Assembly (NCBI GenBank): GCA_963702005.1
Contig: OY969696.1
Coordinates: 2,408,172 to 2,472,171 of the forward strand
DNA length: 64,000 nucleotides
Direction of reading: 5' to 3'
From: Candidatus Aminicenantes bacterium
Lineage (GTDB): Bacteria; Acidobacteriota; Aminicenantia; Aminicenantales; JAFGBC01
In this document: one piece after another, positions 668-55,944 of the stretch
How the letters are laid out: every line of letters starts with the position of its first letter
How positions within the stretch are numbered: the first letter of the stretch is position 1
Program-made: the position numbers and the translations under genes
Notes under the pieces: generated by a model
The model's database searches: none
Told to the model about the DNA's origin: nothing
Seen by the model: only the letters and a program-made list of their open reading frames with translations

Positions 668-780
668 GTTGACCCGTTCGCCGACGCCAAGCCCCGCCTT
701 TCAAGGCGGGGTTGAGAGCGAGGCTCAGGGTTAATCATGAACAAGCCCCGGCCTTCAGGCCGGGAAGTCGATGATTTGAC
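668..780. repeat. Copy 1 (113 bp) of an interspersed repeat family. It starts TGACCCGTTCGCCGACGC, carries two GC-rich hairpin modules (CCCCGCC-TTTCAA-GGCGGGG and CCCCGGCC-TTCA-GGCCGGG) and ends GTCGATGATTTGAC.
   Basis: Direct sequence similarity to 34594-34663 and 55588-55944 in the same termini and hairpin modules. It sits in a convergent intergenic region. Confidence 0.6.
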
Positions 781-1055
781 TATCAAGGCGATCATAGCTC
801 CCGCTCTTTTATGCGCGCTGCAGAATGAGGAAACGGACATCGTCAAATGGCTCGTGGCGAAAGGGGCCGAATCTCGCCGGCCTTTCCCGTTCTGCGGGGC
901 GATTATCTCGGTCAGAAGAAGCCGGGGATGAAGCCGGAACTGTTCGCTCCCGGAGATGTCGCCCGATCGAAAATATATTTTCTTCGTCAGCAACCGAGAC
1001 GGGAACGACGATATTTACTGGAGGGACACAAAAATCATAGATGAGCTCAGACCGA

Positions 1056-1541
1056 TCAGGTGATCGCGACGCGGACGAGCGTCGGGTTTAGGACACGGGC
1101 CAGGTCCGTCGGGTCAAGTCCGACCAGGAAGCCGCGCTTGCCGCCGTTGACGTAGATCGTCGGCAACTCCAAGATCGTCGCCTCGATATAAACCGGCAGC
1201 GCTTTCCGGAGACCGAACGGTGAAGTCCCTCCAACCATGTACCCGGAGTGTCTCTGGGCCGTCTCCGGCGCGCAAGGCTGAACCGTTTTAACGCCCAGGG
1301 TGCGGGCGAGCTCCTTGGTCGAGACCTCCCGGTCGCCGTGCATCAAGATGACAAAAGGCCGTTTGCCGTCATCTTCCATGACGAGCGTTTTGATGACGAC
1401 GTGCTCGTCCACGCCGAACTCCTCGGCAAAGATCGCCGTCCCGCCGTGCTCGACGTAGCGGTAAACATGCTCCGTAAAAAACACTCCGGCGTCCTTGAGG
1501 ACGCGAACCGCCGCCGTCGTTGGGGTTCTATTTTTGGTCAT
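1056..1541 (-). CDS. ybaK: Cys-tRNA(Pro)/Cys-tRNA(Cys) deacylase, YbaK/EbsC family.
   Basis: The 161-aa ORF has the YbaK-family pattern ...HGGTAIFAEEFGVDE...GGTSPFG... and a length typical of YbaK. Confidence 0.8.
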   Translation of the reverse strand: MTKNRTPTTAAVRVLKDAGVFFTEHVYRYVEHGGTAIFAEEFGVDEHVVIKTLVMEDDGKRPFVILMHGDREVSTKELARTLGVKTVQPCAPETAQRHSGYMVGGTSPFGLRKALPVYIEATILELPTIYVNGGKRGFLVGLDPTDLARVLNPTLVRVAIT

Positions 1542-1595
1542 GGCTTCGCTCCCTATAGGGAAGCCCTCTCAGAAGCTCAAGGAGCTGGGTCGACT

Positions 1596-2840
1596 TTATT
1601 CGTAGCGAAGGGAGACGATCGGGTCGAGCTTGGAGGCCTTCTGGGCCGGAAAGATCCCGAAGAACAGGCCGATCGAGATCGAGACGGCCAATCCCAGGAT
1701 CACGGACCAGGGGGAGACGGCCGCCGGAAGCGGGGTGGCGGCTTTAACGACCTGGGCGATCAGGAAGCCGAGCAGGACTCCGATCAACCCCCCCGACCCG
1801 GTCAGGACGATGGCCTCGATCAGGAACTGGCGCAGGATGTCGCCGGCTCGGGCGCCGATGGCCTTTCGGATCCCGATCTCGCGGGTCCGCTCCTTGACCG
1901 AGACGAGCATGATGTTCATGACCCCGATCCCTCCGACCAGGAGGCCGATCGAGGAGATGACGATCATGACCAGGTAGGCGGCCCCGGTGATCTGGTTATA
2001 GAGGTCGAGGATCGTGTCCATGGTGAAGACGGCGAAGTCGTTGGGCTTGTTGAAGGGGACCTTGCGCCGCTTACGGAGGAGGTTGGTTATTTCTTCGATC
2101 GTCTGGTCGATCGTCCCGTGGGTCCGGGGGATGGCCGCGATCTCGATGCTGTCTTTTTGGTAATCGAAATATTTGGTGAGCGCCGTGATCGGAATCGCCA
2201 CGAAATTGTCGCGGCTTTGGCCGAATATCTGGCCCCGCTTGGCGAGGACGCCGATGACCGTGAATTTCTGGGGGCCGACCCGGATCTCCTTGCCGACCGG
2301 GCTGGTGTGAGGGAAGAGGGTCTCGGCCGTCTCGAAACCGAGCAGGCAGGACAGGGTCGCGTGGGCGACTTCGGATTCGGTCAGGAAGCGGCCTTCCTTG
2401 GGGAGGTAGAGGGCGTAGACGATGGGGAACCTGTCGTTGATGCCCAGGATGATCGTGTTGTCGCTCTTGATATTCTCGTAGCGGACGGGGTTTTCGGCGA
2501 AGACGTTGGCCACGACGTTGACGGCGACGGCCTTGACCAGGGGGCATTCCCGCTCGATGGCCTGAACGTCCTCGTAGGTGATATCCTTTCGGGTCCGCTG
2601 CTCCTCGGTCTGGCGGCCCATCTGGAGGCCCTCATACTTGCGGATCAGGATCAGGTCGGAGCCGGCCGACTCGAGCTCGCGCAGGAAGGATTTGTTGAGG
2701 CCCTGGATGACCGAGACCATGCCGATGACGGTCATGACCCCGATCATGATCCCGAGCAGGGTCAGGAAGGAGCGGAGCTTGTTGACCTTGAGGGAGTCCA
2801 AGGCCATGGCAAAGACCTCTTTGATGATCCCGAGTCTCAT
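1596..2840 (-). CDS. ABC transporter permease, MacB/FtsX family, with an N-terminal TM helix, a large periplasmic domain and a C-terminal FtsX 3-TM bundle.
   Basis: The 414-aa ORF has the N-terminal LKVNKLRSFLTLLGIMIGV TM region and a C-terminal ...RTREIGIRKAIGA... FtsX core. It overlaps the upstream paralog by 4 nt. Confidence 0.8.
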   Translation of the reverse strand: MRLGIIKEVFAMALDSLKVNKLRSFLTLLGIMIGVMTVIGMVSVIQGLNKSFLRELESAGSDLILIRKYEGLQMGRQTEEQRTRKDITYEDVQAIERECPLVKAVAVNVVANVFAENPVRYENIKSDNTIILGINDRFPIVYALYLPKEGRFLTESEVAHATLSCLLGFETAETLFPHTSPVGKEIRVGPQKFTVIGVLAKRGQIFGQSRDNFVAIPITALTKYFDYQKDSIEIAAIPRTHGTIDQTIEEITNLLRKRRKVPFNKPNDFAVFTMDTILDLYNQITGAAYLVMIVISSIGLLVGGIGVMNIMLVSVKERTREIGIRKAIGARAGDILRQFLIEAIVLTGSGGLIGVLLGFLIAQVVKAATPLPAAVSPWSVILGLAVSISIGLFFGIFPAQKASKLDPIVSLRYE

Positions 2841-4072
2841 TGTTCGGACCTCAGCGCGTCGATGGGGTTGAGTTTGGCGGCCTTGTTGGCCGGGTAGAGC
2901 CCGAAGAACAGCCCGATCGAGGTCGACATCAGAATGGCGATCAGGATCGAGGCGGGCTCGGCCCGGGACGGCATCGAGGTCGCGGCCGTCACGATCTTGG
3001 AGATCCCGATCCCGAGCAGGATGCCGATGATTCCGCCCAGGGCGGCGATGAAGGACGACTCGATCAGGAACTGGCGGAGGATGTCCTTGCGGCGGGCGCC
3101 GACGGCCATCCGAATCCCGATCTCCTTGGTCCGCTCGGTCACGGCGACCAGCATGATGTTCATGATGACGATCCCGCCCACGATCAGGGCGATCGAGGAG
3201 ATGGCGATCATGGCGAAATAGATTCCCGAGGTCGCCGTCTTGTAGAACTGGATGAAGGTCTCGGAGGTCTGGAAGGAGAAATCATCCGGGTCGTTGAAGC
3301 GGCGCTTCCGCCAGGAGCGGAGGATGGTCCGGACCTCCTCCTGGGCCTGGGCCATCTCTGCCTGGGACCGGGTATGGATGTTGATGTTCAGGCTCCGGCC
3401 GCTCCCGTAAATCTTCTCGAAGGTCGTGATCGGGATTCGGACGTAGTTGTCCTGGCTGAACCCCAGGACCTTACCTTTCTTCTTACCCAGACCGACGACC
3501 AGAAGGTTCTGGTTCCCGACCTTGAGCCAGCGGCCGATCGGGTCGAGGCCGCCGAAGACCTTTTCCCGGACGTCGGCGCCGATGACGCACACCCCCCGGG
3601 AATGGGCCTCGTCCTCCTTCTGGATATGGCGGCCGGCTTCGAGCTCGATGACCGTTCCGATCAGGTGGTCGAGATGGGTGATCCCCCGGATCTCGGTGTC
3701 CTTGAGCGTCTCGTTCCCGTACTTGACGTTCTTCTGCGTCGAGACGCTGGCCCCGACCATCTCGCAGGATTGGCAGCGGTCGCGGATGACGTCCATTTCG
3801 GCGAGGGTCAGGTCTTTGCGTTTGAGCTGTTTCTTGAATTCCTCCAGCGAGGTCCCGATCATCGAGAACTTGGAGACCGAGAAGTCGTTGGCGCCGAAAA
3901 AGGACATCTTGGTGTAGACATAGTTGTTCAGCCCTTGGATGACCGAGACGACGGCGATGATGGTCAGGACGCCGATGATGATGCCGAGCAGGGTCAGGAA
4001 GCTCCGAAGCTTGCTGCCCCACAGGGAGCCGAGGGACATGGAGATGGATTCGTTGATGTTGATGCGGCCCAT
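2837..4072 (-). CDS. ABC transporter permease, MacB/FtsX family, a tandem paralog of the downstream gene.
   Basis: The 411-aa ORF has the same architecture (SLWGSKLRSFLTLLGIIIGV ... RTKEIGIRMAVGA). No ATPase gene is adjacent. Confidence 0.8.
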   Translation of the reverse strand: MGRININESISMSLGSLWGSKLRSFLTLLGIIIGVLTIIAVVSVIQGLNNYVYTKMSFFGANDFSVSKFSMIGTSLEEFKKQLKRKDLTLAEMDVIRDRCQSCEMVGASVSTQKNVKYGNETLKDTEIRGITHLDHLIGTVIELEAGRHIQKEDEAHSRGVCVIGADVREKVFGGLDPIGRWLKVGNQNLLVVGLGKKKGKVLGFSQDNYVRIPITTFEKIYGSGRSLNINIHTRSQAEMAQAQEEVRTILRSWRKRRFNDPDDFSFQTSETFIQFYKTATSGIYFAMIAISSIALIVGGIVIMNIMLVAVTERTKEIGIRMAVGARRKDILRQFLIESSFIAALGGIIGILLGIGISKIVTAATSMPSRAEPASILIAILMSTSIGLFFGLYPANKAAKLNPIDALRSEQ

Positions 4073-4210
4073 GGTCGAGTTTCCTATTTTACTTTATTTC
4101 ATACGGACCCGGCCTTAAAAGGTTTGCCCGGTCCTCCCGAGCTTGACTTGGCTCCGCGAAGTCGCCACAATGGACCCGAAGAGCGGATGATCCGTTTCCG
4201 AGGAGGAGGA

Positions 4211-4774
4211 ATGAGAAAGACGATCGGGGCTCTGCTCCTGACGGGCGTCCTGCTGGCGGCCCCGGCCGCGGCTTCGGCCCAAGCCGGCATCTACTTTGGC
4301 CTCCAGGGCGGGCTGTCCCTCCAGAAGCCGAGCCTGGAGGGCGTCGATTTCGGCACGGATACGACTTTCGTTTACGGGCTCAAGGCGGGGGTCAAGCTCT
4401 TGATGTTCGTCGTCGAGTTCCAGTATTTCCAAGCCGCCCACAACATCAGCCTCACGGATCCGACGGCCCTGGATTGGGACGGCCGGGCCGTCGAATACAC
4501 CCATCTCGGCCTCAATGTCAAATATCTCTTTTCCCTGATCGTGGTCAATCCCTATCTGAGCGTCGGATACGGGTACTATGGGGCCGATATCGAGACTATC
4601 GACAAAGATAGGGTCGGAGGGTTCAACTTAGGCGCCGGTGTCGAGATCATGCTCGGAAAGAAGTTCGCGGTCGTGGCCGAAGGCCGCTACCACCACGTCA
4701 AGTTCGATATCACGAACTTGGGCCTGAATGTCGGGGATTTCACCCTGACAGCCGGCATGAATTTCTATTTCTAG
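4211..4774 (+). CDS. Small outer-membrane beta-barrel protein (about 187 aa, OmpW/opacity-like 8-strand barrel).
   Basis: A strong SD (AGGAGGAGGA) sits just before the ATG at 4211. The protein has a signal peptide MRKTIGALLLTGVLLAAPAAASA, alternating hydrophobic beta-strand pattern and a C-terminal aromatic residue (…MNFYF). The long upstream part of the listed ORF 2840-4774 is antisense shadow of the permease. Confidence 0.65.
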   Translation: MRKTIGALLLTGVLLAAPAAASAQAGIYFGLQGGLSLQKPSLEGVDFGTDTTFVYGLKAGVKLLMFVVEFQYFQAAHNISLTDPTALDWDGRAVEYTHLGLNVKYLFSLIVVNPYLSVGYGYYGADIETIDKDRVGGFNLGAGVEIMLGKKFAVVAEGRYHHVKFDITNLGLNVGDFTLTAGMNFYF

Positions 4775-4806
4775 CCCCGATTGCCGGGCCCGTCTGCTCT
4801 GAACCT

Positions 4807-5532
4807 ATGACGATACGGCTCAATAAGTTTCTTTCCCAGGCCGGCGTCGCCTCCCGCCGGGAAGCCGACCGGATGATCCTCAACGGCGAGGTCCGGGTCG
4901 ACGGCCGAGTCGTCCAGGAGCTGGGGTCCAAGGTCGATGAGGACCGGACCCGGGTCGAGGTCAAAGGTCGGCCGGTCGTCCGTGAAGACCGCCTCGTTTA
5001 CCTCGCCTTCTACAAGCCCAAAGGCGTCCTGGTCACTTTCAAGGATCCCTTGGGCCGGCCGACCATCAAGAGCCTGCTGCCCCGGCTCCGCCAGCGCGTC
5101 TTCCCGGTTGGACGTCTCGATTTCGACAGCGAAGGGCTCCTCCTGCTGACCAACGACGGCGATCTCGCCCTCCGGCTCGCCCATCCCCGCTACGAAGTCA
5201 AGAAAAAATACGTCGCCGATATTGACGGTCTCCCCGGCCCGGACGCCCTCTACCGCCTGGAAACGGGGATCATGCTCGACGGAAAGAGGACCGCGCCGGC
5301 CAAGGCCAAGCTTATGGCCGGAACCGCCAGGCGGAGCCGGCTTCTCATCGAGGTCCACGAAGGCCGCAAGCATGAAGTCCGGGGGATGTGCGAGGCCATC
5401 GGCCACCGCGTTCGCGGTTTGAAGCGGATCGGCTTCGCGGGCCTCATGTTGGGAAGCCTCAAGCCCGGGCAGTGGCGATTTCTGGACGCCAAGGAAGTCG
5501 GAAAGCTCAAAGCGACGACCGGGACGGGCTGA
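4807..5532 (+). CDS. rRNA pseudouridine synthase, RsuA/RluB family (S4 domain plus catalytic domain).
   Basis: N-terminal S4 motif LNKFLSQAGVASRREADRMI is followed by the catalytic VGRLDFDSEGLLLLTNDG block. Confidence 0.8.
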   Translation: MTIRLNKFLSQAGVASRREADRMILNGEVRVDGRVVQELGSKVDEDRTRVEVKGRPVVREDRLVYLAFYKPKGVLVTFKDPLGRPTIKSLLPRLRQRVFPVGRLDFDSEGLLLLTNDGDLALRLAHPRYEVKKKYVADIDGLPGPDALYRLETGIMLDGKRTAPAKAKLMAGTARRSRLLIEVHEGRKHEVRGMCEAIGHRVRGLKRIGFAGLMLGSLKPGQWRFLDAKEVGKLKATTGTG

Positions 5533-5538
5533 GCGGGC

Positions 5539-8010
5539 TCAGGAATCCTTCTCGGGGCCGGGCGGAAACGGCTTCAGGCTCTGGGCCAGGCGCTGGAGCT
5601 CCTTTTCGACGAGGCCGTGGACGGTTCCCTCCCCGAAGCTCCCGTCCTCCCCCCTGGCTCCGGCCGCGACGCCGGTCAGGATCTCGATGCCCTCGTCGAC
5701 CGTCTTGACCGGATAGATGTGGAATTTCCCGCCGGCGACGGCCTCGACGACGTCGCTCCGGAGCTGGAGGTTGAGGATGTTCTGGTGGGGGATGATGACG
5801 CCCTGGCTCCCGGTCAATCCCTTGGCCCGGCAGACGTCGAAGAAGCCCTCGATCTTTTCGTTGACGCCGCCGATGGGCTGGATCTCGCCCTTCTGGTTCA
5901 AGGAGCCGGTGACGGCCGTGTCCTGCCGGATGGGGAGTCCGGACAGGCTGGAAAGGACGGCGTAGACTTCGGTCGAGGAGGCGCTGTCGCCGTCGACGCC
6001 CCCGTAGGACTGCTCGAAGGCGAGGCTGGCCGTGAGCGAAAAGGGCTGTTTCTGGGCGTATTGGCCGCGCAGGTAGCCGCCCAGGATGAGCACGCCTTTG
6101 TTGTGGGTCGGACCGCTGAGGTCCGCCTCCCGCTCGATGTTGACGACGCCGGCCCGGCCCACGGCCGTCCGGGCCGTGATCCGGGTCGGCTTGCCGAAGG
6201 CGAACTGGCCCATATCGTAGACGGAGAGCCCGTTGACCTGGCCGACGACCGAACCCTCGGTGTCGATGAGGATGGTCCCTTCCTCGATCATCTCCTGGAT
6301 TTTATCCTCGATCAGGCTGACCCGCTCGAACCGTTCGGAGATGGCCTGCTCGACGTCGAGCCGGCCGACGATGTCGTGGCCGGCCCGGCGGGCCCAGTAG
6401 GCGGCCTCCCGGATGACGTCGGAGATGACGTGAAAACGGGTCGAGACCTTTCCCTGGCGGCCGGCGATCCGCGTCCCGTACTCGATGACGGCCGCGATCC
6501 CCTCCCGGCTGAAAGGCCGGAGCCCGTCCATGTCGACGATCTTCTTGATGAACCGGACGTAGTCCGAGATGGATTTGGCGTCTTTGGGTATCTCCGAGTC
6601 GAACTCGGCCTTGATCTTGAAGATCTTCTTGAAGTCGTCGTCGAGGGCGTAGAGGAGGTTATAGATGGAGCTGTCGCCGATCATGACGACCTTGACGTCG
6701 ACCTTGACGGGCTCGGGCTTGAGGCGGGCCGATGAAAAGAGATACAGGGAAGCGAAGTTCTGGATCTCGAAAATCTGGTTGCGCATGGTCCGCTTGAGGG
6801 TCGCCCAGACGCCGGGCTCGACAAGAGCGTCGAGGGCGTTGAGGACGAGGTAGCCGCCGTTGGCCTTGAGGAAGGACCCGGCCTTGATCCGGGTGAAGTC
6901 GGTTTGGAGAAGGCCCATCCGGGTCGTGACGAATTCGATCGAGCCGAACAGGTTCGGATAGTTCGGGTTCGTCTCCATGATGACCGGGGCCGCCTTGAGC
7001 TCGGCGTTGTCGACGAGGAGGTTGACCCCGTACTCGAGGAAGCGCTCGGCGGCCGGCTCCCGTTCGGGCTCGTCCTTGTCCTTTTTCTGATTTTTGAACA
7101 GGTCGATGGCCCGGACCAGGTTGCCCTCGACGTCCGAGAGATAATCCCCGACCTTGGGGAAGGCGAACCGCGAGCGCAGCTCGCCTACGGCGCCCTTGAT
7201 GATGGGCGTGATCGATTCTTCGTCCCAGGACCGGAGCAGACGGCGAGTCTCCTCGTCCATCTCGCGGAGATCCTCGAAGACGTGCTCCATTTCCCCCGAC
7301 AAGTCTTCGTATTTCTTGTGGAGTTCATCCAGGTCCTTCTGGGCGAACTTTTTCTCCTTGACCAGGGCCTCAAGCTTGGGGAAGGGGACGGGCTCGTCGC
7401 CCAGGACGGGGACGAGCTCGGGCCGGCTGAAGAAGCCCATCTGGACCTGGATGAGCGTGAAGCCCTGCTGGGCGGCTTTGTCCTCGAAGGCCTTGAGGAG
7501 GTCCTTCTGTTTCCGCTGCTGGGTTTCGATGATCCGGTCCCGGCCTTCCGTATAATACTGGCTCTTGAGGAGTTGGGGGATATGCCTCCCGAGCATGGCG
7601 ATGAGGTTGCCCATCCCCTGGCGGAACAGACGCCCCTGACCGGCCGGCAGCATGATCAGGGTCGGCTCGTCGGGAGTTTTAAAGTTGTTGACGTAGAGGA
7701 TGTCGTCCGGGATGACGGACGTTTTTTCCAGCTGCTCGAGGAGCGACTTGATCGTCGTCGTCCGGCCCGTACCGATCATGCCGGTGATGAAGATATTGTA
7801 ACCCCGGCTCTTGATGTCCAAGCCGGTCTGGATGGCCTTGAGGGCCCGTTCCTGGCCGATGATCTCGTCGCAGGCCTTGACCTCTTCGCTCGTGGCGAAG
7901 GGGACGGCGTCCGGAGGGCAGGACCACCTGATCTGGTCGGGGCCGAGCTCTGGAAACCCAGTCTTGGCTGTCATGGACGGCTCCTTCGTTTGAGATGTCG
8001 CGGAACGCAT
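5539..8010 (-). CDS. Lon-like ATP-dependent protease: an AAA+ module with a large insertion plus a C-terminal Lon S16 proteolytic domain (LonC-type).
   Basis: Walker A motif ITGMIGTGRTTTIKSL. The C-terminal Lon protease domain reads ...GPTHNKGVLILGGY...TGSLNQKGEIQPIGGVNEKIEG... Confidence 0.7.
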   Translation of the reverse strand: MRSATSQTKEPSMTAKTGFPELGPDQIRWSCPPDAVPFATSEEVKACDEIIGQERALKAIQTGLDIKSRGYNIFITGMIGTGRTTTIKSLLEQLEKTSVIPDDILYVNNFKTPDEPTLIMLPAGQGRLFRQGMGNLIAMLGRHIPQLLKSQYYTEGRDRIIETQQRKQKDLLKAFEDKAAQQGFTLIQVQMGFFSRPELVPVLGDEPVPFPKLEALVKEKKFAQKDLDELHKKYEDLSGEMEHVFEDLREMDEETRRLLRSWDEESITPIIKGAVGELRSRFAFPKVGDYLSDVEGNLVRAIDLFKNQKKDKDEPEREPAAERFLEYGVNLLVDNAELKAAPVIMETNPNYPNLFGSIEFVTTRMGLLQTDFTRIKAGSFLKANGGYLVLNALDALVEPGVWATLKRTMRNQIFEIQNFASLYLFSSARLKPEPVKVDVKVVMIGDSSIYNLLYALDDDFKKIFKIKAEFDSEIPKDAKSISDYVRFIKKIVDMDGLRPFSREGIAAVIEYGTRIAGRQGKVSTRFHVISDVIREAAYWARRAGHDIVGRLDVEQAISERFERVSLIEDKIQEMIEEGTILIDTEGSVVGQVNGLSVYDMGQFAFGKPTRITARTAVGRAGVVNIEREADLSGPTHNKGVLILGGYLRGQYAQKQPFSLTASLAFEQSYGGVDGDSASSTEVYAVLSSLSGLPIRQDTAVTGSLNQKGEIQPIGGVNEKIEGFFDVCRAKGLTGSQGVIIPHQNILNLQLRSDVVEAVAGGKFHIYPVKTVDEGIEILTGVAAGARGEDGSFGEGTVHGLVEKELQRLAQSLKPFPPGPEKDS

Positions 8011-8118
8011 TTTATTTTACCATAAAAGCCTTCGGCGCCGTCGGCCCCGGCCTCGAAAATTTCGTGCAAATGGGGCCCCGTTCTGATAAAATGACCCTGA
8101 TTTTGGAGGGTATAAGGC

Positions 8119-9240
8119 ATGGCTAGGCTCGAGGTCGAGAAGGTTGTCGCCGGGAAAGACCTCAAGGCGTTCATCCGTTTCCCTTGGGAGATCTACCGGG
8201 GCGACCCCAACTGGGTTCCGCCGCTCATCGCGGACATGAAGGAGAGGCTCGACCCGGCCCGGAATCCCTTCCTCGAGCATGCCGAGATGGATATCTTCCT
8301 GGCCCGGCGCGACGGCCGCGTCGTGGGCCGGATCGCGGCCATTCTCGACAGGAACCACAACTCGTTCCACGACGAGAAAATCGCTTTCTTCGGCCTTTAC
8401 GAAAGCCTCAACGATCCGGAGGTCGCGGCCGCCCTCCTCGATACGGTCGGCGCCTGGGGGAAGGAGCGGGGGATGACGATCCTGCGCGGTCCGATGAACC
8501 TGTCCATGAACGACGAATGCGCCTTTCTCCTCGAGGGGTTCGATTCGCCGCCCGTCATCATGATGACCTACAATCCCCCCTACTACCTCGAGCTCATGGC
8601 CGGCGTCGGCCTGGTCAAGGCCAAGGACCTCTACGCCTTCGTCATGAGCCGCGACCACGAGACGGCAGGGAAGGTCGCGGCCGTCGTCGAAAGAGCCAAG
8701 AAGGAGTTTCCGGTCACGCTGCGGACGGTCGACCTCAAGAACGTCCGGGCCGAGGCCGATAAGATCGCTTTCATCTATAACAACGGCTGGCAGAAGAACT
8801 GGGGCTTCGTTCCCTGGACCGAGAACGAGATGAAGCACATGGTCGGCAAGCTCAAGAGCCTGGCAGACCCCGAGCTCGTCATTTTCGCCGAGATCGAGGG
8901 GAAGCCGGTCGGGTTCGCCTTCGCCCTGCCCAACTACAACGAAGTCCTCCGCAAGATGAACGGCCGTCTGTTTCCGGTCGGCTGGCTCGTCTTTCTCCTC
9001 AACCGAAAAAAAATCAAGGGTATGCGGGCCGTCGTCTTCGGCATCGTCAAGGAGCACCACCGTTCCGGGCTCAGCTACCTTCTTTATTCCGAGCTCGAGC
9101 GGAACGCCGTGCGGAGGGGCTACGCCTGGGGGGAGCTGTCCTGGCAGCTCGAGGACAACGACGCCATCAATCGTTTCGCGGCCTCGATCGGCGCGAAAAT
9201 CTATAAACGTTACAGGATCTTGCAAAGACTCATCCCCTGA
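8119..9240 (+). CDS. Uncharacterized GNAT-fold / FemAB-like acyltransferase family protein.
   Basis: The 373-aa ORF (FPWEIYRGDPNWVPPL...) starts 8 nt after the SD GGAGGG. The family assignment rests on a weak overall resemblance to roughly 370-aa GNAT-like proteins only. Confidence 0.4.
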   Translation: MARLEVEKVVAGKDLKAFIRFPWEIYRGDPNWVPPLIADMKERLDPARNPFLEHAEMDIFLARRDGRVVGRIAAILDRNHNSFHDEKIAFFGLYESLNDPEVAAALLDTVGAWGKERGMTILRGPMNLSMNDECAFLLEGFDSPPVIMMTYNPPYYLELMAGVGLVKAKDLYAFVMSRDHETAGKVAAVVERAKKEFPVTLRTVDLKNVRAEADKIAFIYNNGWQKNWGFVPWTENEMKHMVGKLKSLADPELVIFAEIEGKPVGFAFALPNYNEVLRKMNGRLFPVGWLVFLLNRKKIKGMRAVVFGIVKEHHRSGLSYLLYSELERNAVRRGYAWGELSWQLEDNDAINRFAASIGAKIYKRYRILQRLIP

Positions 9241-9252
9241 GGAGGGACGCGC

Positions 9253-9723
9253 ATGGAAATGCATGAAGGTAAACTCCAGGTCAAAGGGTATAAGGTCGGG
9301 ATCGTCCTGAGCCGTTTCAACCAGTTCCTGTCGGAGCGGCTCCTCGAGGGAGCCCTCGACGCGCTCCGCAAGCTGGGGGCGGACGATAAGGACATCAGCA
9401 TCTACAAGGTTCCCGGTTCCTTCGAGGTTCCCCTCCTGGCCAAGAAACTTGCCAAGGCCAAGAAGGCCGACGGGATCGTCTGTCTGGGTGTCCTGATCAG
9501 AGGCGATACGCCCCATTTCGACTTCCTGAGCGCCGAGGTGACCAAGGGCTTGGCCCAGGTCGCTCTGGACGAAGGCGTCCCCGTCGCCTTCGGCATGCTG
9601 ACCGTCGACACGATCGAGCAGGGGATCGAGCGGGCCGGCACCAAATCCGGGAACAAAGGCTGGGACGCCGTCCTGGCTTTGGCCGAGACGCTCAACCTCC
9701 TCCAGGAGGCCGGCCTCCGCTGA
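9253..9723 (+). CDS. ribH: 6,7-dimethyl-8-ribityllumazine synthase.
   Basis: The 156-aa ORF has conserved lumazine synthase blocks (GIVLSRFN...VPGSFEVP...GVLIRGDTPHFDF), and nusB follows immediately. Confidence 0.9.
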   Translation: MEMHEGKLQVKGYKVGIVLSRFNQFLSERLLEGALDALRKLGADDKDISIYKVPGSFEVPLLAKKLAKAKKADGIVCLGVLIRGDTPHFDFLSAEVTKGLAQVALDEGVPVAFGMLTVDTIEQGIERAGTKSGNKGWDAVLALAETLNLLQEAGLR

Positions 9724-9747
9724 GCGACCGGAGGGGAGCCCACAGCC

Positions 9748-10260
9748 ATGGGGAAGAGGCGGGAGGCCCGGGAGTGCGCCCTCCAGGTCCTGTTCCAGCT
9801 CGAGTTCGACATCTCCGACGTCGAACGGAGCCTCCGCGAATACTGGACGGGCAAGAAGCCCAAGGACGACGTCCGCAAGTACGCGAGCTGGCTCGTCCAC
9901 GGCATCCTGGCCCGGAAAACGGACGTCGACGGCCTCATCAGGGACACGTCCCAACACTGGCGCATGGAGCGGATGGGCCTGGTCGACCGGAACATCCTCC
10001 GCATGGCCGTCTACGAGCTCCTCGAGGAGAAGGTCCTGGCCCCGCCGATCATCATCAACGAGGCCATCGAGATCGCTAAAAAGTACAGCGACGAAAAGTC
10101 GGCGACATTCATTAACGGACTCCTGGACGCGATCCGTAAGAAGCTCGAGACCCGTCCGCCCCGGACCGGCAAAGACAAAGAAGGCCAACATGGACCCAAA
10201 AAAAGAACCCGAGGAGCAAGTCGGCGATCAGGAGCAGGCTCGGCGGGACAATCTCGCTGA
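9748..10260 (+). CDS. nusB: Transcription antitermination factor NusB, with a low-complexity C-terminal extension overlapping lysS.
   Basis: REARECALQVLFQLEF...INEAIEIAKKY... is the typical NusB fold signature. It follows ribH as in the canonical ribH-nusB arrangement. Confidence 0.85.
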   Translation: MGKRREARECALQVLFQLEFDISDVERSLREYWTGKKPKDDVRKYASWLVHGILARKTDVDGLIRDTSQHWRMERMGLVDRNILRMAVYELLEEKVLAPPIIINEAIEIAKKYSDEKSATFINGLLDAIRKKLETRPPRTGKDKEGQHGPKKRTRGASRRSGAGSAGQSR

Positions 10261-13600: not shown

Positions 13601-13614
13601 AACCGGCGTTTCAG
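13597..13614 (+). terminator. GC-rich palindrome CTGAAACCGGCGTTTCAG overlapping the lolD stop codon, a possible weak terminator or processing hairpin.
   Basis: Perfect 7-bp arms around a CGGC centre, with no U-tract downstream. Confidence 0.25.
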
Positions 13615-13694
13615 GTAATGGACGCTTAGAATTATCCCTTGGGGCGAATCCGCTTGGAAAAAAGCGTCCGATATGGTATAAAAAGGATTTCCAA

Positions 13695-16022: not shown

Positions 16023-16068
16023 ACGGACATCACCTTGGTGTGAACATAGTGACTTAGGAGGTTCAACG

Positions 16069-16608: not shown

Positions 16609-16639
16609 GCGGGCCGGCCGCGAGAGCCGCATCAGGGCG

Positions 16640-34571: not shown

Positions 34572-34593
34572 GCCTCGCTCTTCTTTTTTCCTT

Positions 34594-34663
34594 TGACCCG
34601 TTCGCCGACGCTAAGCCCAGCCTTGCAGTACTCGTGGCTTCCATGGGTGTCGAGGGGTTGACA
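34594..34663. repeat. Copy 2 (70 bp) of the interspersed repeat family, a deletion derivative that retains the 5' end TGACCCGTTCGCCGACGCTAAGCCC and the 3' end ...CATGGCTTCCATGGGTGTCGAGGGGTTGAC.
   Basis: Both termini match the full-length 357-bp copy at 55588-55944; its 3' TTGACA forms the -35 box of the speE promoter. Confidence 0.6.
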
Positions 34664-34687
34664 CGGCCCGCAGCCGTCCCCTATAAT
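34658..34687 (+). promoter_or_regulatory. Perfect-consensus sigma-70 promoter TTGACA-N18-TATAAT; the speE ATG lies 9 nt after the -10 (near-leaderless).
   Basis: TTGACA at 34658-34663 (contributed by the repeat 3' end), TATAAT at 34682-34687, and the ATG at 34697. Confidence 0.5.
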
Positions 34688-34696: not shown

Positions 34697-35539
34697 ATGA
34701 ACAGCCGTCACTCCGGACGCCGGCCCCTCGAGTTCCGCGAGGACCAGACGCCGACGAGCGGGATTTTTTTCAAAGCACGCCGTTCCCTCTATCGGGGCCG
34801 CTCCCGCTTCCAGCGGATCGAGGTTTTCGAGAACGACGCCTTCGGCCGCGTCCTGTTCCTGGACGGCTTGGTCCAGACGACCGAAAAGGACGAATTTTTC
34901 TACCATGAGATGCTCGTCCATCCCGCCCTCCTCCGGCATCCCCGGCCGCGCCGGGTCCTGATCATCGGGGGAGGGGACGGCGGCGCCTTGCGCGAAGTCC
35001 TGCGCCATCCCGTTGAAAAGGCGACCTTAGTCGAAATCGACGGCCGTGTCATCGAAGTCTGCAAGGAACATTTCGGCTGGCTGCGGCCCGCCCTGCGCGG
35101 CGGCCGGGCCGAAATCGTCGTCGACGACGGGAACGTATTTCTCAACAGGACCCGGGACCGTTTCGACGTCATCCTGGTCGACTCCTCGGACCCGGTCGGC
35201 CCCTCGACGGTCCTCCATCAGAAGGCGTTTTATGAAAGAGTCAAGCGCCGCCTGTCGCCGGGAGGGATCGCGGCCGCCCAGGCCGGCGCCTTGCTCTACC
35301 ATCTCGATTCCCACCGCCGCAAGAACGCCTTCCTCCGGACGCTCTTCCGCCACGCCCATTTCTATATCGGTCCCGTCCCGACCTATCCCGGCGGTATGTG
35401 GTGCTATGTTTTTTGTTCGGACAGGATCCTTCCCCTCGGCCGCCTCCGGCGGGCGCCGGCGGGACTCCGCTACTACAATCCCGAGGTCCATAGGGCCGCC
35501 TTCGCCCTGCCCAACCTGCTGGCCGAAAAGCTGCGCTGA
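34697..35539 (+). CDS. speE: Spermidine synthase (polyamine aminopropyltransferase).
   Basis: FENDAFGRVLFLDG..QTTEKDEFFYHEM..VLIIGGGDGGALREV..VDSSDPVGP.. are classic SpeE blocks. The ATG at 34697 is in-frame with the listed ORF 34634-35539, whose first 21 aa (MASMGVEGL...) are repeat-derived. Confidence 0.85.
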   Translation: MNSRHSGRRPLEFREDQTPTSGIFFKARRSLYRGRSRFQRIEVFENDAFGRVLFLDGLVQTTEKDEFFYHEMLVHPALLRHPRPRRVLIIGGGDGGALREVLRHPVEKATLVEIDGRVIEVCKEHFGWLRPALRGGRAEIVVDDGNVFLNRTRDRFDVILVDSSDPVGPSTVLHQKAFYERVKRRLSPGGIAAAQAGALLYHLDSHRRKNAFLRTLFRHAHFYIGPVPTYPGGMWCYVFCSDRILPLGRLRRAPAGLRYYNPEVHRAAFALPNLLAEKLR

Positions 35540-35566: not shown

Positions 35567-36544
35567 TTAGCCTTCGAGTCGCCTCTCGTCCCTTTTTGTG
35601 CGGAGGGCCCGCAGCATGTCCGCGGTCATCGCGGCCAGATCGTAGGACGGCGCCCAGCCCCATTCCTCCCGGGCGGCCGAATCGTCGATCGATTCGGGCC
35701 AGGAGTCGGCGATGGCCTGACGAAAGTCCGGCTTGTAGGCGCAGACGAAGCCGGGGAGGTGTTTGCGGATTTCGGCTGCCAGTTCCCCGGCCGAGAAGCT
35801 CACGGCCGAGACGTTGAAATTGGAATGATGTTTGAGACGGCCGAAATCGGCGTCCATCAAGTCCACGACGGACTTGAGGCAGTCCGGCATATACATCATG
35901 GGGAGGCGGGTCTCTTCCTTGAGAAAGCACGTGTACTTTCCGGACTTGACGGCGTCATAGAAAATGGCGACGGCGTAATCGGTCGTGCCCCCGCCGGGAA
36001 GGGTCTCGTGGCTGATGATGCCTGGGAAGCGGCAGCCCCTAACGTCGAGGCCGAACTTGCGCACGTAGTAATCGCACAGGTATTCGCCGGCGACCTTGGT
36101 GACGCCGTACATCGTCCGGGGGTCGAGGATCGTGTCCTGGGGCGTGTTTGGGCGGGGGGTGGCCGGGCCGAATACGGCGATCGAGCTCGGGACGAAGACG
36201 CGGACGAGGCTCTCCTCGCGGGCGACCTCGAGGACGGCGTGGGTTCCGTCCATGTTGACGCGCCAGGCCTTGTCCGGCTGCTTCTCGCCCACGGCGGACA
36301 GGATGGCGGCCAGGTGGTAGATCGTATCGATCCGGTATTTGCGGACGACGGCCTTGAGGGCCTTGATGTCCGTGATGTCCAAGCGTTCAAACGGGCCGGC
36401 TTCTCCGAAAGCGGCGAAGGGGGCGGCGATATCGGAAGCGACGACGTTGGCGGCCCCGTGCCGGGTTCGGAGCAGGGCCGTCAGCTCGGACCCGATCTGG
36501 CCGATGGCGCCGGTGATCAGGATCGTCTTCATATCTTTAGCCAT
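35567..36544 (-). CDS. NAD-dependent epimerase/dehydratase family protein, SDR-type L-threonine 3-dehydrogenase-like.
   Basis: N-terminal ILITGAIGQIGSELTALLR Rossmann motif and a catalytic YxxxK region (YGVTKVAGE), consistent with the UDP-glucose-4-epimerase-like TDH family. Confidence 0.7.
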   Translation of the reverse strand: MAKDMKTILITGAIGQIGSELTALLRTRHGAANVVASDIAAPFAAFGEAGPFERLDITDIKALKAVVRKYRIDTIYHLAAILSAVGEKQPDKAWRVNMDGTHAVLEVAREESLVRVFVPSSIAVFGPATPRPNTPQDTILDPRTMYGVTKVAGEYLCDYYVRKFGLDVRGCRFPGIISHETLPGGGTTDYAVAIFYDAVKSGKYTCFLKEETRLPMMYMPDCLKSVVDLMDADFGRLKHHSNFNVSAVSFSAGELAAEIRKHLPGFVCAYKPDFRQAIADSWPESIDDSAAREEWGWAPSYDLAAMTADMLRALRTKRDERRLEG

Positions 36545-36688
36545 GGATGAGGACCTCGCAGGACGAATTATTGAATAAGAAAGGATTACTTATATCGTGA
36601 CCACGCCGGGATGTCAATATGGACTCTGCGCCGGCGGAGGCCGGTTTCGCGTATAATAGGGGCGATCCTTCGGGAAGGAGCATAAGGA

Positions 36689-42128: not shown

Positions 42129-42158
42129 GACCGCATTTCCACAGATAAAAATTTTATA

Positions 42159-42240
42159 CTAAGGCTTTAAAAGCGGATCTGAAGCGACCAGCGTTAAAAA
42201 CCCGAAGGGGAGCGAAGACCGCTTTTAAAGCCTTAGTACT
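42159..42240. repeat. Perfect 20-bp inverted repeat (TACTAAGGCTTTAAAAGCGG ... CCGCTTTTAAAGCCTTAGTA) separated by a 42-nt loop, in the intergenic region.
   Basis: Read directly from the sequence; it is AT-richer than its surroundings and has no U-tract. Confidence 0.7.
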
Positions 42241-42313
42241 ACGGGCTTGCCCCGCGAAGGCCGCTGGACTACAATGATCGTCCCGGATCGTCGGTTCGGA
42301 CCGTGAGGTTTCC

Positions 42314-43078: not shown

Positions 43079-43102
43079 GGGCGGCGCCGGCGGGGGGCCG
43101 GG

Positions 43103-44164: not shown

Positions 44165-44273
44165 GATGAAGTTAGCCTCTCAGCGAAACTGTAGCGGAAA
44201 GCAAGGCTCTTGACAAGACACCTTGCTTCCCAGGGGCCGGACGGCCCCCGCATTCGCGCGCCGGACGCGGATC

Positions 44274-52785: not shown

Positions 52786-52794
52786 GGCCCGGCC

Positions 52795-55590
52795 GTGTTC
52801 GTCCCGCTCCGCGTCCATTCCGTTTTCAGCAAAGGGAAGGGGAGCGTCCTGGTCGAGGAAGCGGCCGCCTGGACGGCGGCGAAGAAGCTTCCGGCCGCGG
52901 CCCTCGCCGACGTCGGGAACCTCTACGGCTGGAGCAGGTGGAAGCGGGCCGCCCGGGAGCGGGGCGTCGCCCCCCTGTTCGGCTGTGAGGTCGAAACCGG
53001 CCGGGGCCGGCTCCTGCTCCTTGTCCAGAGCCGCGAGGGGTACGGGAACCTCGTCGAAACGCTCAACCGCCGCGAGATGGGAAGCGGGGACGGGCTCGTC
53101 ACGATCGTCCTTCCCAACCCGAAAGGTCCTGCTCCGGACATCTCCGCGGCCGACCTCTACATCGGCGCCGGGTTCGGGAATTTCAGGACGGCCCTCGAGC
53201 TGAGCCGGAGGAGCGGGCGTCCGCTCGTCTGGGTCAACCCCCTCAAGTACGTCGCCAGCCCCGAGCGGCTTATCCTCCTCCATGCCGTCGAGAAGAAACT
53301 GCCCTATCCTCCCGAGCGGGAGCGGCTCAAGGCCAAGGTCCGGCTCTACGGCCCGGACCAGGAAACGTTGGCACTCAAGAGGTTCGGCGCCGCGGCGGCC
53401 GACGCCCTCCTCCGGACCTTCGAGGTCGCCGAGAGGTGCCGGTTCGCCTTCGAGGACGTCGTCCCGCCCCTCCCGTCCGACCTGTTTCCCCACAGCCTGC
53501 GCGAGACGGTCGTGGCCCGGCTGACGGCCGCCAAGGCGCTCTCCTGGCGGGAGCGGGAGCGGGCCCGCCGCGAGCTCGAGGCCATCGAGGCCTCGGGCTT
53601 CGCGCCCTACTTCCTCATCGTCCACGACGTCGTCGAGTTCGCCCGGCGCCGCGGCATCCTCCACAACCTGCGCGGCTCGGGAGCTTCCTCGTTCCTGGCT
53701 TTCCTGCTCGGCGTCTCCCATATCAACCCCCTCGACTTCGACCTCTACTTCGAGCGCTTCCTGAACCGGGGCCGGCCCGACCCGCCCGACATCGACCTCG
53801 ACTTCGACTCGCGCCGCCGCGACGAGGTCCTGGCCTACGTCCTCGAGCGCTACGGGAAGGGACGGACGGGCGCCGCCTACGTCTCGAGCGTCAAAAGCTT
53901 CGGGGCCCGCTCCGCCCTGTACGAGACGGCCCGGGCCTTGGGCGTCGCGCCCGAGGAGGCCCGGCAGCTGGCCAAGCGGGCCCCGGTCTTCGCCGAGCCG
54001 GCCTCCCTGCGGCGGGCCGCGCCGGCCCCGGGCTTCCTCGAGGTCTGGCAGCTCGCCGCCGAGCTCGACGGCGCCTACGCCGAAAGCTCGCTCCACGTGG
54101 GCGGAGTCATCCTGACGCCGGCGCCGGTCGAACGGTTCCTGCCGCTCGAGACTTCGGCCAAAGGCCTCCTCATGTGCCACTTCGACAAGGACGCCGTCGA
54201 GGACCTGAAGCTCATCAAGCTCGACCTCCTCTCGGTTCGCGGCCTGGCCGCCGTCTCGGAGACGAAGGAGAGGCTCCGCCTCCGGAGCCTGCCCGAGGAC
54301 GACGTCGAGACCTGGAGTCTCGTCGCCAAGGCCCGGACGATCGGCTGCTTCCAAGTCGAGAGCCCGGCCATGATGAACCTTCTGCGTCGGATGAAGCCGC
54401 GGACCGTCCGGGACCTGACCCAGGCCCTGGCCCTGATCCGGCCCGGCCCGACCGAGAGCGGGATGAAGGAGGCCCTCCTCCGGAGCCGGGAGGGACGGGG
54501 CGAGGGCCGCGATCCCTTGTGGACGCGGGTCTTGCCCGAGACGGACGGCTTTCTCCTCTATGAGGAACAGGTCATGCAGGTCGCGGAGCGCGTGGCGGGC
54601 TTCCCCGCCGAGACGGGCGACCTCCTCCGCCGCTGCCTCAAACGGAAGGGCGGCGATCCGTCCCTCCGCGCCCGCTTCGTCCGGGAGGCGCTGGAGCGCG
54701 GCTATACGGACGACGAGGTCGAAAGGCTGTGGGCCGTCATGGAACGGTTCTCGTCCTACTCCTTTAACAAGGCTCACAGCGCCTCCTACGCCCACATGGC
54801 CTACCAGGCCGCCTACCTCAAGGCCCACCACCCCGTCCCGTACCTCGCGGCCGTCCTCAACGCCGGCGGCGGCTATTACGGCCTCGAGGAGTACGTCGAG
54901 GAGGCCAAGCGGTCGGGCATCCGCATCCTCGGCCCCGACGCGAACCGGAGCCGCGGCGGGTTCGAGGTCGAAGGGGCCGCCATCCGGGTCGGCCTGACCG
55001 CCATCAAGGGCCTCGGCCTCAAGACGGTCGAGGCCGTCCTCCGCGAGAGGGAGGGGGGAGGGCCGTTCGGCTCGGTCGAGGACTTCCTGGCGCGGGTCCG
55101 GCCGGCCAAGGCGGAGCTGCTGGCCCTCGTCCGGGCCGGCGTCTTCGATTCCCTCGAACCGCGCCGGACGCGGCAGATCCTCCGCTACGTCCAGGGCCTC
55201 GGGGATATGGAAGAGGTCGCGGACATCGACGCCAGGGAGAAGGAACGGATGCTGGCCGCCTCGCTGGGGTTCAGTCCCGGGACCGACCCGCTCGAGTTCT
55301 TCGAAGGGAAGCGGCCCGGGCTCCGCATCCGCGACCTCCCGGACCGGGTCGGCCGAACGGTCGAGCTCGTCGTCCGCGTCGTGGACGCCCGGGAGAAGAG
55401 AGTCAACGGCGGACGGGCCTCTAAGTATTTCTACCTGTTCGAGGACGAGACCGGCCTCCTCGAGGGCGTGAGCGAGGCACGGCTGCTCGCCTTCGGGACG
55501 CCGCCGGCCTGCTGCCTGCGGGGCGAGGTCCGCTCCGCCGGGACGGGCCGGGTCAAGCTCCTCGGTTGTTCCTTCCTCCGCTCTTTCTGA
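52795..55590 (+). CDS. dnaE2: Error-prone DNA polymerase III alpha-like DnaE2 (ImuC).
   Basis: Degenerate N-terminal PHP (LRVHSVFSKGKGS), a polymerase palm with catalytic PDIDLDFD, and the RGSGASSFLAFLLGVSHINP block. 931 aa, in a lexA-Ypol-dnaE2 arrangement. Confidence 0.75.
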   Translation: MFVPLRVHSVFSKGKGSVLVEEAAAWTAAKKLPAAALADVGNLYGWSRWKRAARERGVAPLFGCEVETGRGRLLLLVQSREGYGNLVETLNRREMGSGDGLVTIVLPNPKGPAPDISAADLYIGAGFGNFRTALELSRRSGRPLVWVNPLKYVASPERLILLHAVEKKLPYPPERERLKAKVRLYGPDQETLALKRFGAAAADALLRTFEVAERCRFAFEDVVPPLPSDLFPHSLRETVVARLTAAKALSWRERERARRELEAIEASGFAPYFLIVHDVVEFARRRGILHNLRGSGASSFLAFLLGVSHINPLDFDLYFERFLNRGRPDPPDIDLDFDSRRRDEVLAYVLERYGKGRTGAAYVSSVKSFGARSALYETARALGVAPEEARQLAKRAPVFAEPASLRRAAPAPGFLEVWQLAAELDGAYAESSLHVGGVILTPAPVERFLPLETSAKGLLMCHFDKDAVEDLKLIKLDLLSVRGLAAVSETKERLRLRSLPEDDVETWSLVAKARTIGCFQVESPAMMNLLRRMKPRTVRDLTQALALIRPGPTESGMKEALLRSREGRGEGRDPLWTRVLPETDGFLLYEEQVMQVAERVAGFPAETGDLLRRCLKRKGGDPSLRARFVREALERGYTDDEVERLWAVMERFSSYSFNKAHSASYAHMAYQAAYLKAHHPVPYLAAVLNAGGGYYGLEEYVEEAKRSGIRILGPDANRSRGGFEVEGAAIRVGLTAIKGLGLKTVEAVLREREGGGPFGSVEDFLARVRPAKAELLALVRAGVFDSLEPRRTRQILRYVQGLGDMEEVADIDAREKERMLAASLGFSPGTDPLEFFEGKRPGLRIRDLPDRVGRTVELVVRVVDAREKRVNGGRASKYFYLFEDETGLLEGVSEARLLAFGTPPACCLRGEVRSAGTGRVKLLGCSFLRSF

Positions 55591-55944
55591 CCCGTTCGCC
55601 GATGCTACCCCGCCTTGAAAGGCGGGGCTAAAAATCGGAGCCCCGCCTTTCAAGGCGGGGACGAGAAGCGACACTTTTGTACTCAGCCCTTTTAGCAAGG
55701 AATGGGGCTGAGTAGGCTCAGGGTTAACCCTAATCAAGCCCCGGCATTCAGCACTCATGAACCGGAAACGGTTCATGAGTACAGTCGCTCCAATGCCTGT
55801 ACTACGCGGATCCCACAGAATTGAGTCCATGGAGCTCCAGGCCGGGGAGCAGCCTTGCAGCACCCATACTAAACCGTTTCCCGTTTAGTATGGGTACTGC
55901 GAAACGCCTGCACTCATGGCTTCCATGGGTGTCGATGGGTTGAC
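55588..55944. repeat. Copy 3 (full-length, 357 bp) of the interspersed repeat family: the same 5' and 3' termini as copies 1 and 2 plus at least six internal GC-rich hairpin modules.
   Basis: It begins at the dnaE2 TGA stop (TGACCCGTTCGCCGATGC) and ends ...GTCGATGGGTTGAC. Internal hairpins include CCCCGCCTTGAAAGGCGGGG, CCCCGCCTTTCAAGGCGGGG, CTCAGCCC..GGGCTGAG, CATGAACCGGAAACGGTTCATG and CATACTAAACCG..CGTTTAGTATG. Confidence 0.6.

Follow-up and report, generated by a model that had tools for sequence, protein, structure and literature searches.

Members of the IS200/IS605 group of insertion sequences (ISs) move by a "peel-out-paste-in" route catalyzed by the Y1 HUH transposase TnpA, which relies on a transposon-adjacent motif (TAM), a transposon-encoded motif (TEM) and hairpins at the element's ends, leaves no target-site duplication (TSD) and also moves gene-less derivatives, the palindrome-associated transposable elements (PATEs) (PMC10055086). 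Repetitive extragenic palindromic (REP) sequences, which one report describes as palindromes of 20-40 bp with a GTAG or CGTC tag (PMC3733652), are a second system of interest, together with the REP doublets forming hairpins (REPINs), the bacterial interspersed mosaic elements (BIMEs) and the REP-associated tyrosine transposases (RAYTs) treated in two sources (PMC3116915, PMC3733652). Correia elements (CREE) prefer -10-like targets and ISs with an outward -35 form fusion promoters (PMC9330008), and putative mobile promoters are 50-100-nt sequences of at least 80% identity upstream of non-homologous genes (Matus-Garcia et al. 2012, PMC3488235). Here we describe a family of short, hairpin-rich repeats with three copies in a 64,000-nt stretch of a Candidatus Aminicenantes bacterium genome (assembly GCA_963702005.1, contig OY969696.1, positions 2,408,172 to 2,472,171 of the forward strand), which we call the window throughout. 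Judging from sequence comparisons, the family is very probably a TTGAC-specific mobile element that regenerates the -35 box of the promoters it enters.

The initial annotation had proposed three copies of an interspersed repeat in the window, and we recover all three within 1 nt of the same coordinates, each on the + strand (Table 1). The 5' end they were said to share is a 19-nt sequence, TTGACCCGTTCGCCGACGC, with 3 matches in the window at no more than 3 mismatches, compared to 0.03 expected from shuffling, and the copies are also related to one another by blastn-short (pairwise E = 2e-8 to 4e-9). A profile built from 18 family members matches only these 3 places in the window (E from 5e-33 to 1e-6). 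The common 3' end, GGCTTCCATGGGTGTCGA[G/T]GGGTTGAC, holds for copies 2 and 3, and copy 1 ends in the variant GTCGATGATTTGAC, which is also present at another locus (L070). The family was detected by blastn-short, pattern searches and nhmmer instead of by a generic repeat finder, for which it was not among the 20 largest repeats of the window.

Many more copies exist outside the window. A scan of species-representative genomes with the 5' motif, using a pattern that began with TGAC, returned at least 108 stretches, and 8-kb segments around the matches were retained as loci L001-L108. Approximately 50 of those listed are true members, which continue with the same hairpin and come from at least 11 metagenome-assembled genomes (MAGs) among the matches listed; the remaining listed matches were rejected as chance occurrences in the coding DNA of GC-rich taxa, where the family profile gives no match. 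Nine of the member MAGs are labeled Candidatus Aminicenantes or Aminicenantia and two (CAZPEP and CAZGJS) "Eubacteriales". The latter labels are probably wrong, and as found here the family occurs in Aminicenantes only. The MAGs named "uncultured Eubacteriales" carry typical members (L021, L032, L049 and L086 in CAZPEP, L046 in CAZGJS), and L049 matches window positions 62310-63647 at 69% identity.

Comparison of close relatives bears out the mobile-DNA behavior that had been suggested for these repeats, as four orthologous sites (A-D, Table 1) are filled in some genomes and precisely empty in others. Each empty site contains exactly one TTGAC, and three of the four are sigma70-like promoters, those of speE, an epimerase gene and lexA. 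At site A, the empty relative L109 reads ...TGAGG TTGAC ACGTTCTCCGGCCGTCCCC TATAAT, which is the same speE promoter with a single TTGAC and no element. Site B is filled at the same TTGAC in L097 (from MAG PFL55, the contig ending inside the element), in L109 (108 nt) and in L110 (222 nt), and the flanks of the filled site overlap in the window by exactly 5 nt, TTGAC. At site C, the three same-species contigs read ...TAGTCCGG TTGAC TATCAAGG..., and copy 1 is a strain-specific insertion; its synteny is lost in relatives of 81-82% identity, and only the same-species contigs are informative. Site D is also empty in L191 and L189, and in L190 the same TTGAC carries a copy of ~156 nt. The alleles, filled or empty, have no more than the five bases TTGAC in common with the element, and its placement therefore cannot be explained by homologous recombination.

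The element's 3'-terminal TTGAC, which the initial annotation missed, is a predicted promoter -35 box. At copy 2, the predicted speE promoter matches the sigma70 consensus at 12/12 positions, the first five -35 bases being the 3' end of the copy itself, and the ATG of speE (identified by Pfam) lies at 34697, ten bases after TATAAT. This ATG is the true start of speE; the open reading frames (ORFs) that open with MASMGV[ED]GLT are, as had been suspected, an artifact of the repeat's 3' end. Across the family, TAnnnT in the unique flank peaks at offsets 18-19 after the terminal TTGAC, equivalent to a 17-18-nt spacer after TTGACN, and the signal at other offsets is small. At a spacer of 16-19 nt, TAnnnT follows 20 of 45 copies as opposed to 27 of the 733 other TTGACs in the same loci (3.7%; Fisher p ~6e-15). 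Of 48 copies, 44 continue with A or T directly after the terminal TTGAC, and no -10 follows the 5' TTGAC inside the element.

The orientation of neighboring genes points the same family toward promoters. Longest-ORF gene calls gave misleading orientations in this 63% GC DNA, and a codon-usage caller was trained instead. With it, element and downstream gene share a strand in 38 of 42 cases (binomial p = 6e-8), and element and upstream gene in 19 of 38, indicating that the family faces gene 5' ends and is not tied to 3' ends. The earlier placement at gene 3' ends is correct for the window, where each copy follows a stop codon (alaS for copy 1, a SpoIID/SPOR gene for copy 2 and dnaE2 for copy 3, all on the + strand), but does not extend to the family. 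A role as terminator or RNA-stability element, also put forward before, is not supported, given these orientation counts, + strand hairpins that lack a T-tract and a terminator scan at shuffle level: the window copies gave no + strand match for an intrinsic terminator, and their - strand matches are within shuffle expectation.

The TTGAC at both ends could be read as a duplicated target or as a motif carried by the element. No conservation extends beyond five bases upstream of the left junction, where T occupies position -5 in 49 of 59 family junctions. Six independent copies have C, G or A before TGAC at the 5' side, and all six end in TTGAC or TTGAA at the 3' side, never mirroring the 5' pentamer. 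A true duplication would mirror such off-consensus pentamers, and we therefore reject a simple TSD model. The terminal TTGAC is kept in most complete copies (TTGAA in L191), and head-to-tail copies (L110, L075) share one TTGAC, as would follow if insertion can also target the end of a resident element. The strict label of miniature inverted-repeat transposable element (MITE) is doubtful: the repeats are small, non-coding, multicopy and mobile, but they have no convincing terminal inverted repeats and their TTGAC does not behave as a TSD.

Members of the family vary widely in length around fixed ends. The commonest form, ~113 nt, accounts for 10 of the 48 complete copies among the matches listed; minimal forms of 57-58 nt have a single hairpin between the left and right ends, additional hairpin modules bring long forms to as much as 358 nt, and no form in this range contains an ORF of its own. 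In copy 2, one recurrent module joins the left end to the right end. Three parts are invariant: the left end of ~18 nt, CCGTTCGCCGACGCTAAG; a hairpin rich in GC whose loop is TTCA; and a right end in which the hairpin is followed by NGTCGAGGGG and TTGAC. Hairpin H1 begins 18 nt after the left junction, and 15 nt separate the right end from H2 or from the hairpin that takes its place. H1 and H2 are similar subterminal hairpins in direct orientation, with 91% of cells paired over 18 copies; AAG precedes both (CTAAG, ACAAG), at the place expected of guide bases that would pair with the TAM and TEM, neither of which varies in a way that covariation could follow. Over 18 copies, located upstream of unrelated genes, mean column identity is 83%. 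The ends themselves are otherwise unrelated, their only complementarity being a gapped 4+4 bp (ACCC-N6-CGAC with GTCG-A-GGGT).

We propose that the interior is optional, growing by extra hairpin modules or shrinking, by way of recombination or secondary insertion. Consistent with the initial annotation, copy 3 is a string of strong hairpins (minimum free energy -182 kcal/mol; z = -10.4 on the + and -12.1 on the - strand) that includes two inverted copies of CCCCGCCTTTCAAGGCGGGG; copy 1 also folds strongly relative to shuffles (z = -5.8), and copy 2 does not (z = +0.3). The inner modules of copy 3 (at 55679, 55751 and 55857; also in L010, L017, L047, L072 and L104) begin with GTAC or GCAC and are often joined at the TTCA loop of another hairpin. 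They may be small mobile palindromes inside the main element, forming a second layer of REP-like character. The center of the 113-nt form, GGGTTAAC/CCCGAAC (consensus ~60-75; window 729-741), resembles the head-to-tail junction GGGGTTGAC/CCGTTCG, and this form may, by its sequence, descend from a tandem dimer of a shorter unit.

Two further observations concern the loci that carry members. Short-read contigs often end inside the element (L010, L057, L062, L097, L101, L107 and L192), which indicates that the repeat fragments MAG assemblies of this lineage; L192, for instance, matches window 735-1922 at 100% identity and breaks off inside copy 1. In L083 (from ~5194-5260 onward), inserted DNA that encodes a helix-turn-helix transposase-like protein, IS481/IS3-like by eye only, separates a minimal element from its terminal TTGAC.

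The relationship between long and short copies is largely the reverse of that first proposed, in which the short copies were deletion derivatives of the long one. For copy 1 this derivation is rejected, its ~113-nt form being the commonest in the sample. Copy 3, the supposed ancestor, is itself an enlarged derivative: in L191, a contig of the same species whose DnaE2 is 99% identical, a plain 113-nt form lies at the same dnaE2 stop and is followed by a complete epimerase gene. Copy 3 shares the private variants GCCGATGC and CCCTAATC of L191 and is longer by three blocks: an inverted hairpin with its spacer (31 nt), another hairpin (43 nt) and a stretch of ~190 nt that follows the H2 loop. A similar composite occurs at an unrelated locus in MAG PFL55 (L065, 83% identity), indicating that modules travel between copies.

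Approximately 500 bp are missing at copy 3, comprising the rest of the first element, the promoter and about the first 124 codons of the epimerase gene. The ORF that follows is a gene remnant, as its Pfam Epimerase match covers only profile positions 156-240 of 240, leaving the C-terminal part; the L191 gene is full-length with a Rossmann N-terminus, and window 55941-56400 corresponds to L191 7332-7791 at 98.7% identity. At the right junction (marked with a slash), L191 reads ...GGAT CTGAC/TCAACTCTGGG, the latter beginning TCAACTC, and the window reads ...GGG TTGAC/TCAACTC. This fits a route in which a second copy inserted after the CTGAC in the gene and then recombined with the first. An alternative route, deletion of the DNA between the terminal TTGAC and the CTGAC, fits as well.

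Copy 3 stands at the end of a LexA, Y-family polymerase (IMS) and DnaE2 cassette (window 50859-55590; also in L189-L191), the usual SOS mutagenesis gene set, and the lexA promoter of the same cassette is the target site that is occupied in L190. L189 and L190, relatives of 88-89% identity, have no epimerase gene between dnaE2 and the ornithine/diaminopimelate (Orn/DAP) decarboxylase gene. On the 3' side of copy 1, one frame of window 737-1055 contains an ankyrin-like fragment, a stop and a PD40/TolB-like fragment (SPDRKYIFFVSNRDGNDDIYWRD). Pfam gave no match for the ankyrin-like first part. These fragments look like gene scraps and are also kept in strains where the copy 1 site is empty. Beyond them, 1596-2840 and 2837-4072 (-) are adjacent paralogous genes of 414 and 411 aa with stretches of 74-78% DNA identity, the first of which is listed as MacB_PCD/FtsX-type in the gene table of contig L193 (99.5% identical). 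No tRNA or tmRNA gene was found in the window.

Table 1. Repeat copies, their parts, insertion sites and associated promoters in the window, with the consensus features of the family. Slashes mark junctions.
Feature	Position	Strand	Details
Copy 1	669-780	+	112 nt, ~113-nt form; profile E = 5e-33; between the alaS stop (661-663) and gene scraps
Copy 1, 5' TTGAC	669-673
Copy 1, hairpin H1	692-711
Copy 1, central GGGTTAA palindrome region	722-747
Copy 1, hairpin H2	747-764
Copy 1, variant 3' end	765-780		AAGTCGATGATTTGAC
Copy 2	34593-34662	+	70-nt form
Copy 2, 5' end	34593-34615
Copy 2, module	34616-34649		CCCAGCCTTGCAGTACTCGTGGCTTCCATGGGTG
Copy 2, 3' end	34650-34662		TCGAGGGGTTGAC
Copy 3	55587-55944	+	358-nt composite
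Copy 3, 5' CTGAC	55587-55591		its TGA (55588-55590) is the dnaE2 stop
Copy 3, inverted H1	55608-55627
Copy 3, H1	55641-55660
Copy 3, further hairpins	55679-55714, 55751-55782, 55787-55835, 55857-55900, 55913-55929
Copy 3, split H2 halves	55739-55750 and 55839-55847
Copy 3, 3' end	55930-55944		TGTCGATGGGTTGAC
Site A, speE promoter	34593-34662		window, 70-nt copy; L110, different 139-nt copy; L109, empty
Predicted speE promoter	34658-34687	+	-35 TTGACA 34658-34663; 18-nt spacer; -10 TATAAT 34682-34687
Site B, empty in window	36589-36617	-	promoter of epimerase/dehydratase gene 35567-36544 (-); TTGACA 36617-36612; 17-nt spacer; TATAAG 36594-36589
Site C (copy 1)	669-780		window filled; same-species contigs L193, L194, L195 (99% identical) empty
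Site D, lexA promoter, empty in window	50812-50840	+	TTGACA 50812-50817; 17-nt spacer; TATTGT 50835-50840
Epimerase-family ORF, 5'-truncated	55916-56290	+	copy 3 supplies its first 29 nt and with them the apparent ATG
~113-nt form			TTGAC CCGTTCGCCGACGCTAAG [CCCCGCCTTTCAAGGCGGGG] ACGAGAAGCGAGGCTCAGGGTTAACCCCGAACAAG [CCCCGGCATTCATGCCGGGG] AGTCGAGGGG TTGAC
Element bounds			left CCGTTCGCCGACGC..., right ...GTCGAGGGGTTGAC
Predicted circle junction			...GGGGTTGAC/CCGTTCGCC...

Any model of the family has to accommodate its presence or absence at single TTGACs, the fixed orientation, the phasing with a -10, the unmirrored ends and the adjacent deletion at copy 3. We propose that the element would insert in one orientation immediately 3' of TTGAC, with NTGAC tolerated. 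In this lineage such a target would usually be the -35 box of a sigma70-type promoter, and the element's own terminal TTGAC would restore the -35 at its original distance from the resident -10, so that the promoter is predicted to survive the insertion. As a non-autonomous element, it could depend for its mobilization on a trans-acting single-strand transposase of HUH type (IS200/IS605 or RAYT kind), the flanking TTGAC serving as TAM and the terminal TTGAC as TEM. By analogy with the described systems, the best reading of its class would be a non-autonomous, orientation-specific element of IS200/IS605 (PATE) or REP type. We consider this account, taken as a whole, probably the best explanation of the data, and mobilization by an HUH mechanism specifically just short of an even prospect. 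A more elaborate version, which we hold tentatively and place somewhat below even, is that the family is an HUH/Y1 derivative in which TAM, TEM and the -35 core TTGAC are one and the same, and which evolved to live in promoters at little cost. Such an element would land on a -35 box, swap in its own box and excise without a scar, and would persist for this reason.

The search for an enzyme combined an HUH/Y1 regular expression, tblastn with 40 of 120 listed RAYT homologues, a protein search and context look-ups. Genes of the Y1_Tnp (RAYT) type are frequent in Aminicenantes, with 3692 homologues found at E <= 1e-10. Behind each of the RAYT genes of L185 (~1159-1884), L202 and L204 (1501-2157) lies a non-coding tract of ~0.5-0.9 kb, purine-rich and of low complexity, and the unit of gene and tract is bracketed by inverted GGGACAC-type repeats. 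No full-length IS with the same ends as the family was seen among ~56 sampled 5' ends, within the 8-kb segments only.

Several results weigh against the proposed account. No transposase with these ends, and no Y1 gene, was found in the window or in the element-bearing loci. The top RAYT matches lie in lower-GC relatives, and the repeats that flank the RAYTs of L185, L202 and L204 are unrelated to our family; since these examined genes come from lower-GC relatives, they are not decisive for this clade. The strand bias relative to local GC skew, itself a weak proxy, is not significant (36 vs 27). The right-end hairpin differs between variants (CCCCGGC... vs CTCATGG...), which is awkward for a hairpin-specific enzyme, and covariation is uninformative because the hairpins are nearly invariant. 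A recognizable -10 at the right distance is present in only ~45-60% of copies, with none for copies 1 and 3, and the gene calls at the loci come from our home-made codon-usage caller. The conservation of TGAC at the 5' junction in L001-L108 is partly built in, since the scan pattern began with these bases; junction support free of this bias comes from nine copies reached through protein homology (8 TTGAC, 1 CTGAC) and from the four empty sites. Lastly, the junction at copy 3 is explained by a TTGAC-CTGAC deletion as well as by a second insertion.

The alternative closest to our proposal is a classical MITE moved by a DDE transposase with a preference for TTGAC, whose 5-bp duplication would preserve the -35 incidentally. 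TTGAC at both ends, the single TTGAC at empty sites and the small, non-coding, multicopy nature of the elements would all follow from it, and the weak gapped complementarity of the ends (ACCC...CGAC with GTCG.GGGT) is paired in the predicted folds; one element-bearing genome, that of L083, also has the IS481-like IS mentioned above. We nevertheless regard this explanation as unlikely, as the six off-consensus 5' pentamers are never mirrored, the orientation is fixed relative to an asymmetric target, which is unusual for DDE elements, the terminal complementarity amounts to just 4+4 bp with a 6-nt gap, and the ~56 sampled 5' ends include no autonomous element with these ends.

Explanations without transposition fare less well. 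The family could be a host-maintained cis-acting module of core promoters (REP/BIME-like, or an insulator, terminator or protein-binding site) that was spread by recombination and kept by selection, a view suggested by its BIME-like mosaic of GC-rich palindromes with inverted doublets, by a sequence conserved to 83% mean column identity in 11 or more species-level genomes, and by a constant promoter-adjacent position in which half of the copies would fall in the 3' untranslated region (UTR) of a co-directional upstream gene. Copy 1, however, lies at a TTGAC without a recognizable -10 and is absent from 99%-identical strains, close relatives have the same promoters without the element, and the 5 nt shared by the alleles and the element are too few for homologous recombination to place it. 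Together with the missing T-tracts and background-level terminator scan described above, and with H1 and H2 lacking a GTAG or CGTC tag, this makes such a module improbable. Structured small RNAs or stabilizers of mRNA 3' ends, the alternative raised in the initial annotation, would be in keeping with the strong predicted folds of copies 1 and 3 (z = -5.8 and -10.4) and with the stop codon before every window copy. We consider them very improbable, given that both strands fold equally well, as DNA palindromes would, that copy 2 folds no better than shuffles, that no internal -10 follows the 5' TTGAC, and that half of the family lies between divergent genes, outside any 3' UTR. A check against Rfam gave 0 matches at gathering score in the whole window, and copy 3 at E <= 1 gave only sub-threshold, miRNA-like hairpin noise.

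A TTGAC-specific element that regenerates the -35 would be a clear natural case of selfish DNA that avoids harm by copying the signal it interrupts, the -35 being both its landing site and its last five bases. Copies have been gained, lost and enlarged between strains that are 98-99% identical, indicating that the family is active, or was recently, in this uncultured lineage. In practical terms, MAG assemblies break at the repeat, and false ORF starts arise from it. The element may shift -35 boxes around genomes and delete neighboring genes, and thus bears on promoter evolution. If the promoter-dwelling HUH version is true, it would bring a ready-made -35 to any NTGAC and could thereby create promoters, truncate genes (as at copy 3) and allow rapid rewiring, and the TAM of a TnpB or IscB partner, if one exists, would be TTGAC. 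An HUH transposase partner, if there is one, would represent a new target specificity for that enzyme family.

Compared with the described systems, the family most resembles PATEs in having no convincing inverted repeats, subterminal stem-loops in the same orientation, insertion 3' of a pentanucleotide with a matching terminal motif, no TSD, a fixed orientation and scarless empty sites. It differs from them in that no TnpA or TnpB with these ends was found in the window or the element-bearing loci, that TAM, TEM and the -35 core coincide, that the right-end hairpin varies by subfamily, and that the interior is a hairpin mosaic. With REP sequences and BIMEs it shares short GC-rich extragenic palindromes, inverted doublets (55608-55660), mosaics and the occurrence of RAYT-type genes in Aminicenantes. 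In contrast to REPs, its unit length is defined and its ends are long, conserved and non-palindromic, neither H1 nor H2 carries a GTAG or CGTC tag (the GTAC/GCAC start of the inner modules is only suggestive), and the examined RAYTs of relatives are flanked by other repeats.

Like Correia elements and ISs with an outward -35, the family is mobile DNA that brings one promoter hexamer at its terminus, to be used with a second one in the adjacent DNA. With those elements, a promoter arises or is strengthened where the spacing happens to suit, whereas the present one would restore an existing -35 at the same spacing; it has neither a TA duplication nor long inverted repeats. Group IIC introns nest behind terminators. 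ISPpu9 is reported to nest in REP sequences (PMC12288879), and IS1111-family elements insert in integron attC sites (PMC9330008). The strategy that these three share with our family is the use of a recurrent short motif where insertion does little damage; the enzymes and the targets differ. A limited literature search returned no described element that targets -35 boxes and no described Aminicenantes repeat, and as far as we found none of the systems compared here targets the -35 hexamer and restores it. Finally, with 83% mean column identity over 18 copies and unrelated downstream genes, the family falls within the definition of putative mobile promoters. That class is operational and comes without a mechanism, whereas in this family only the -35 travels, the -10 is local and the borders are exact to the base.

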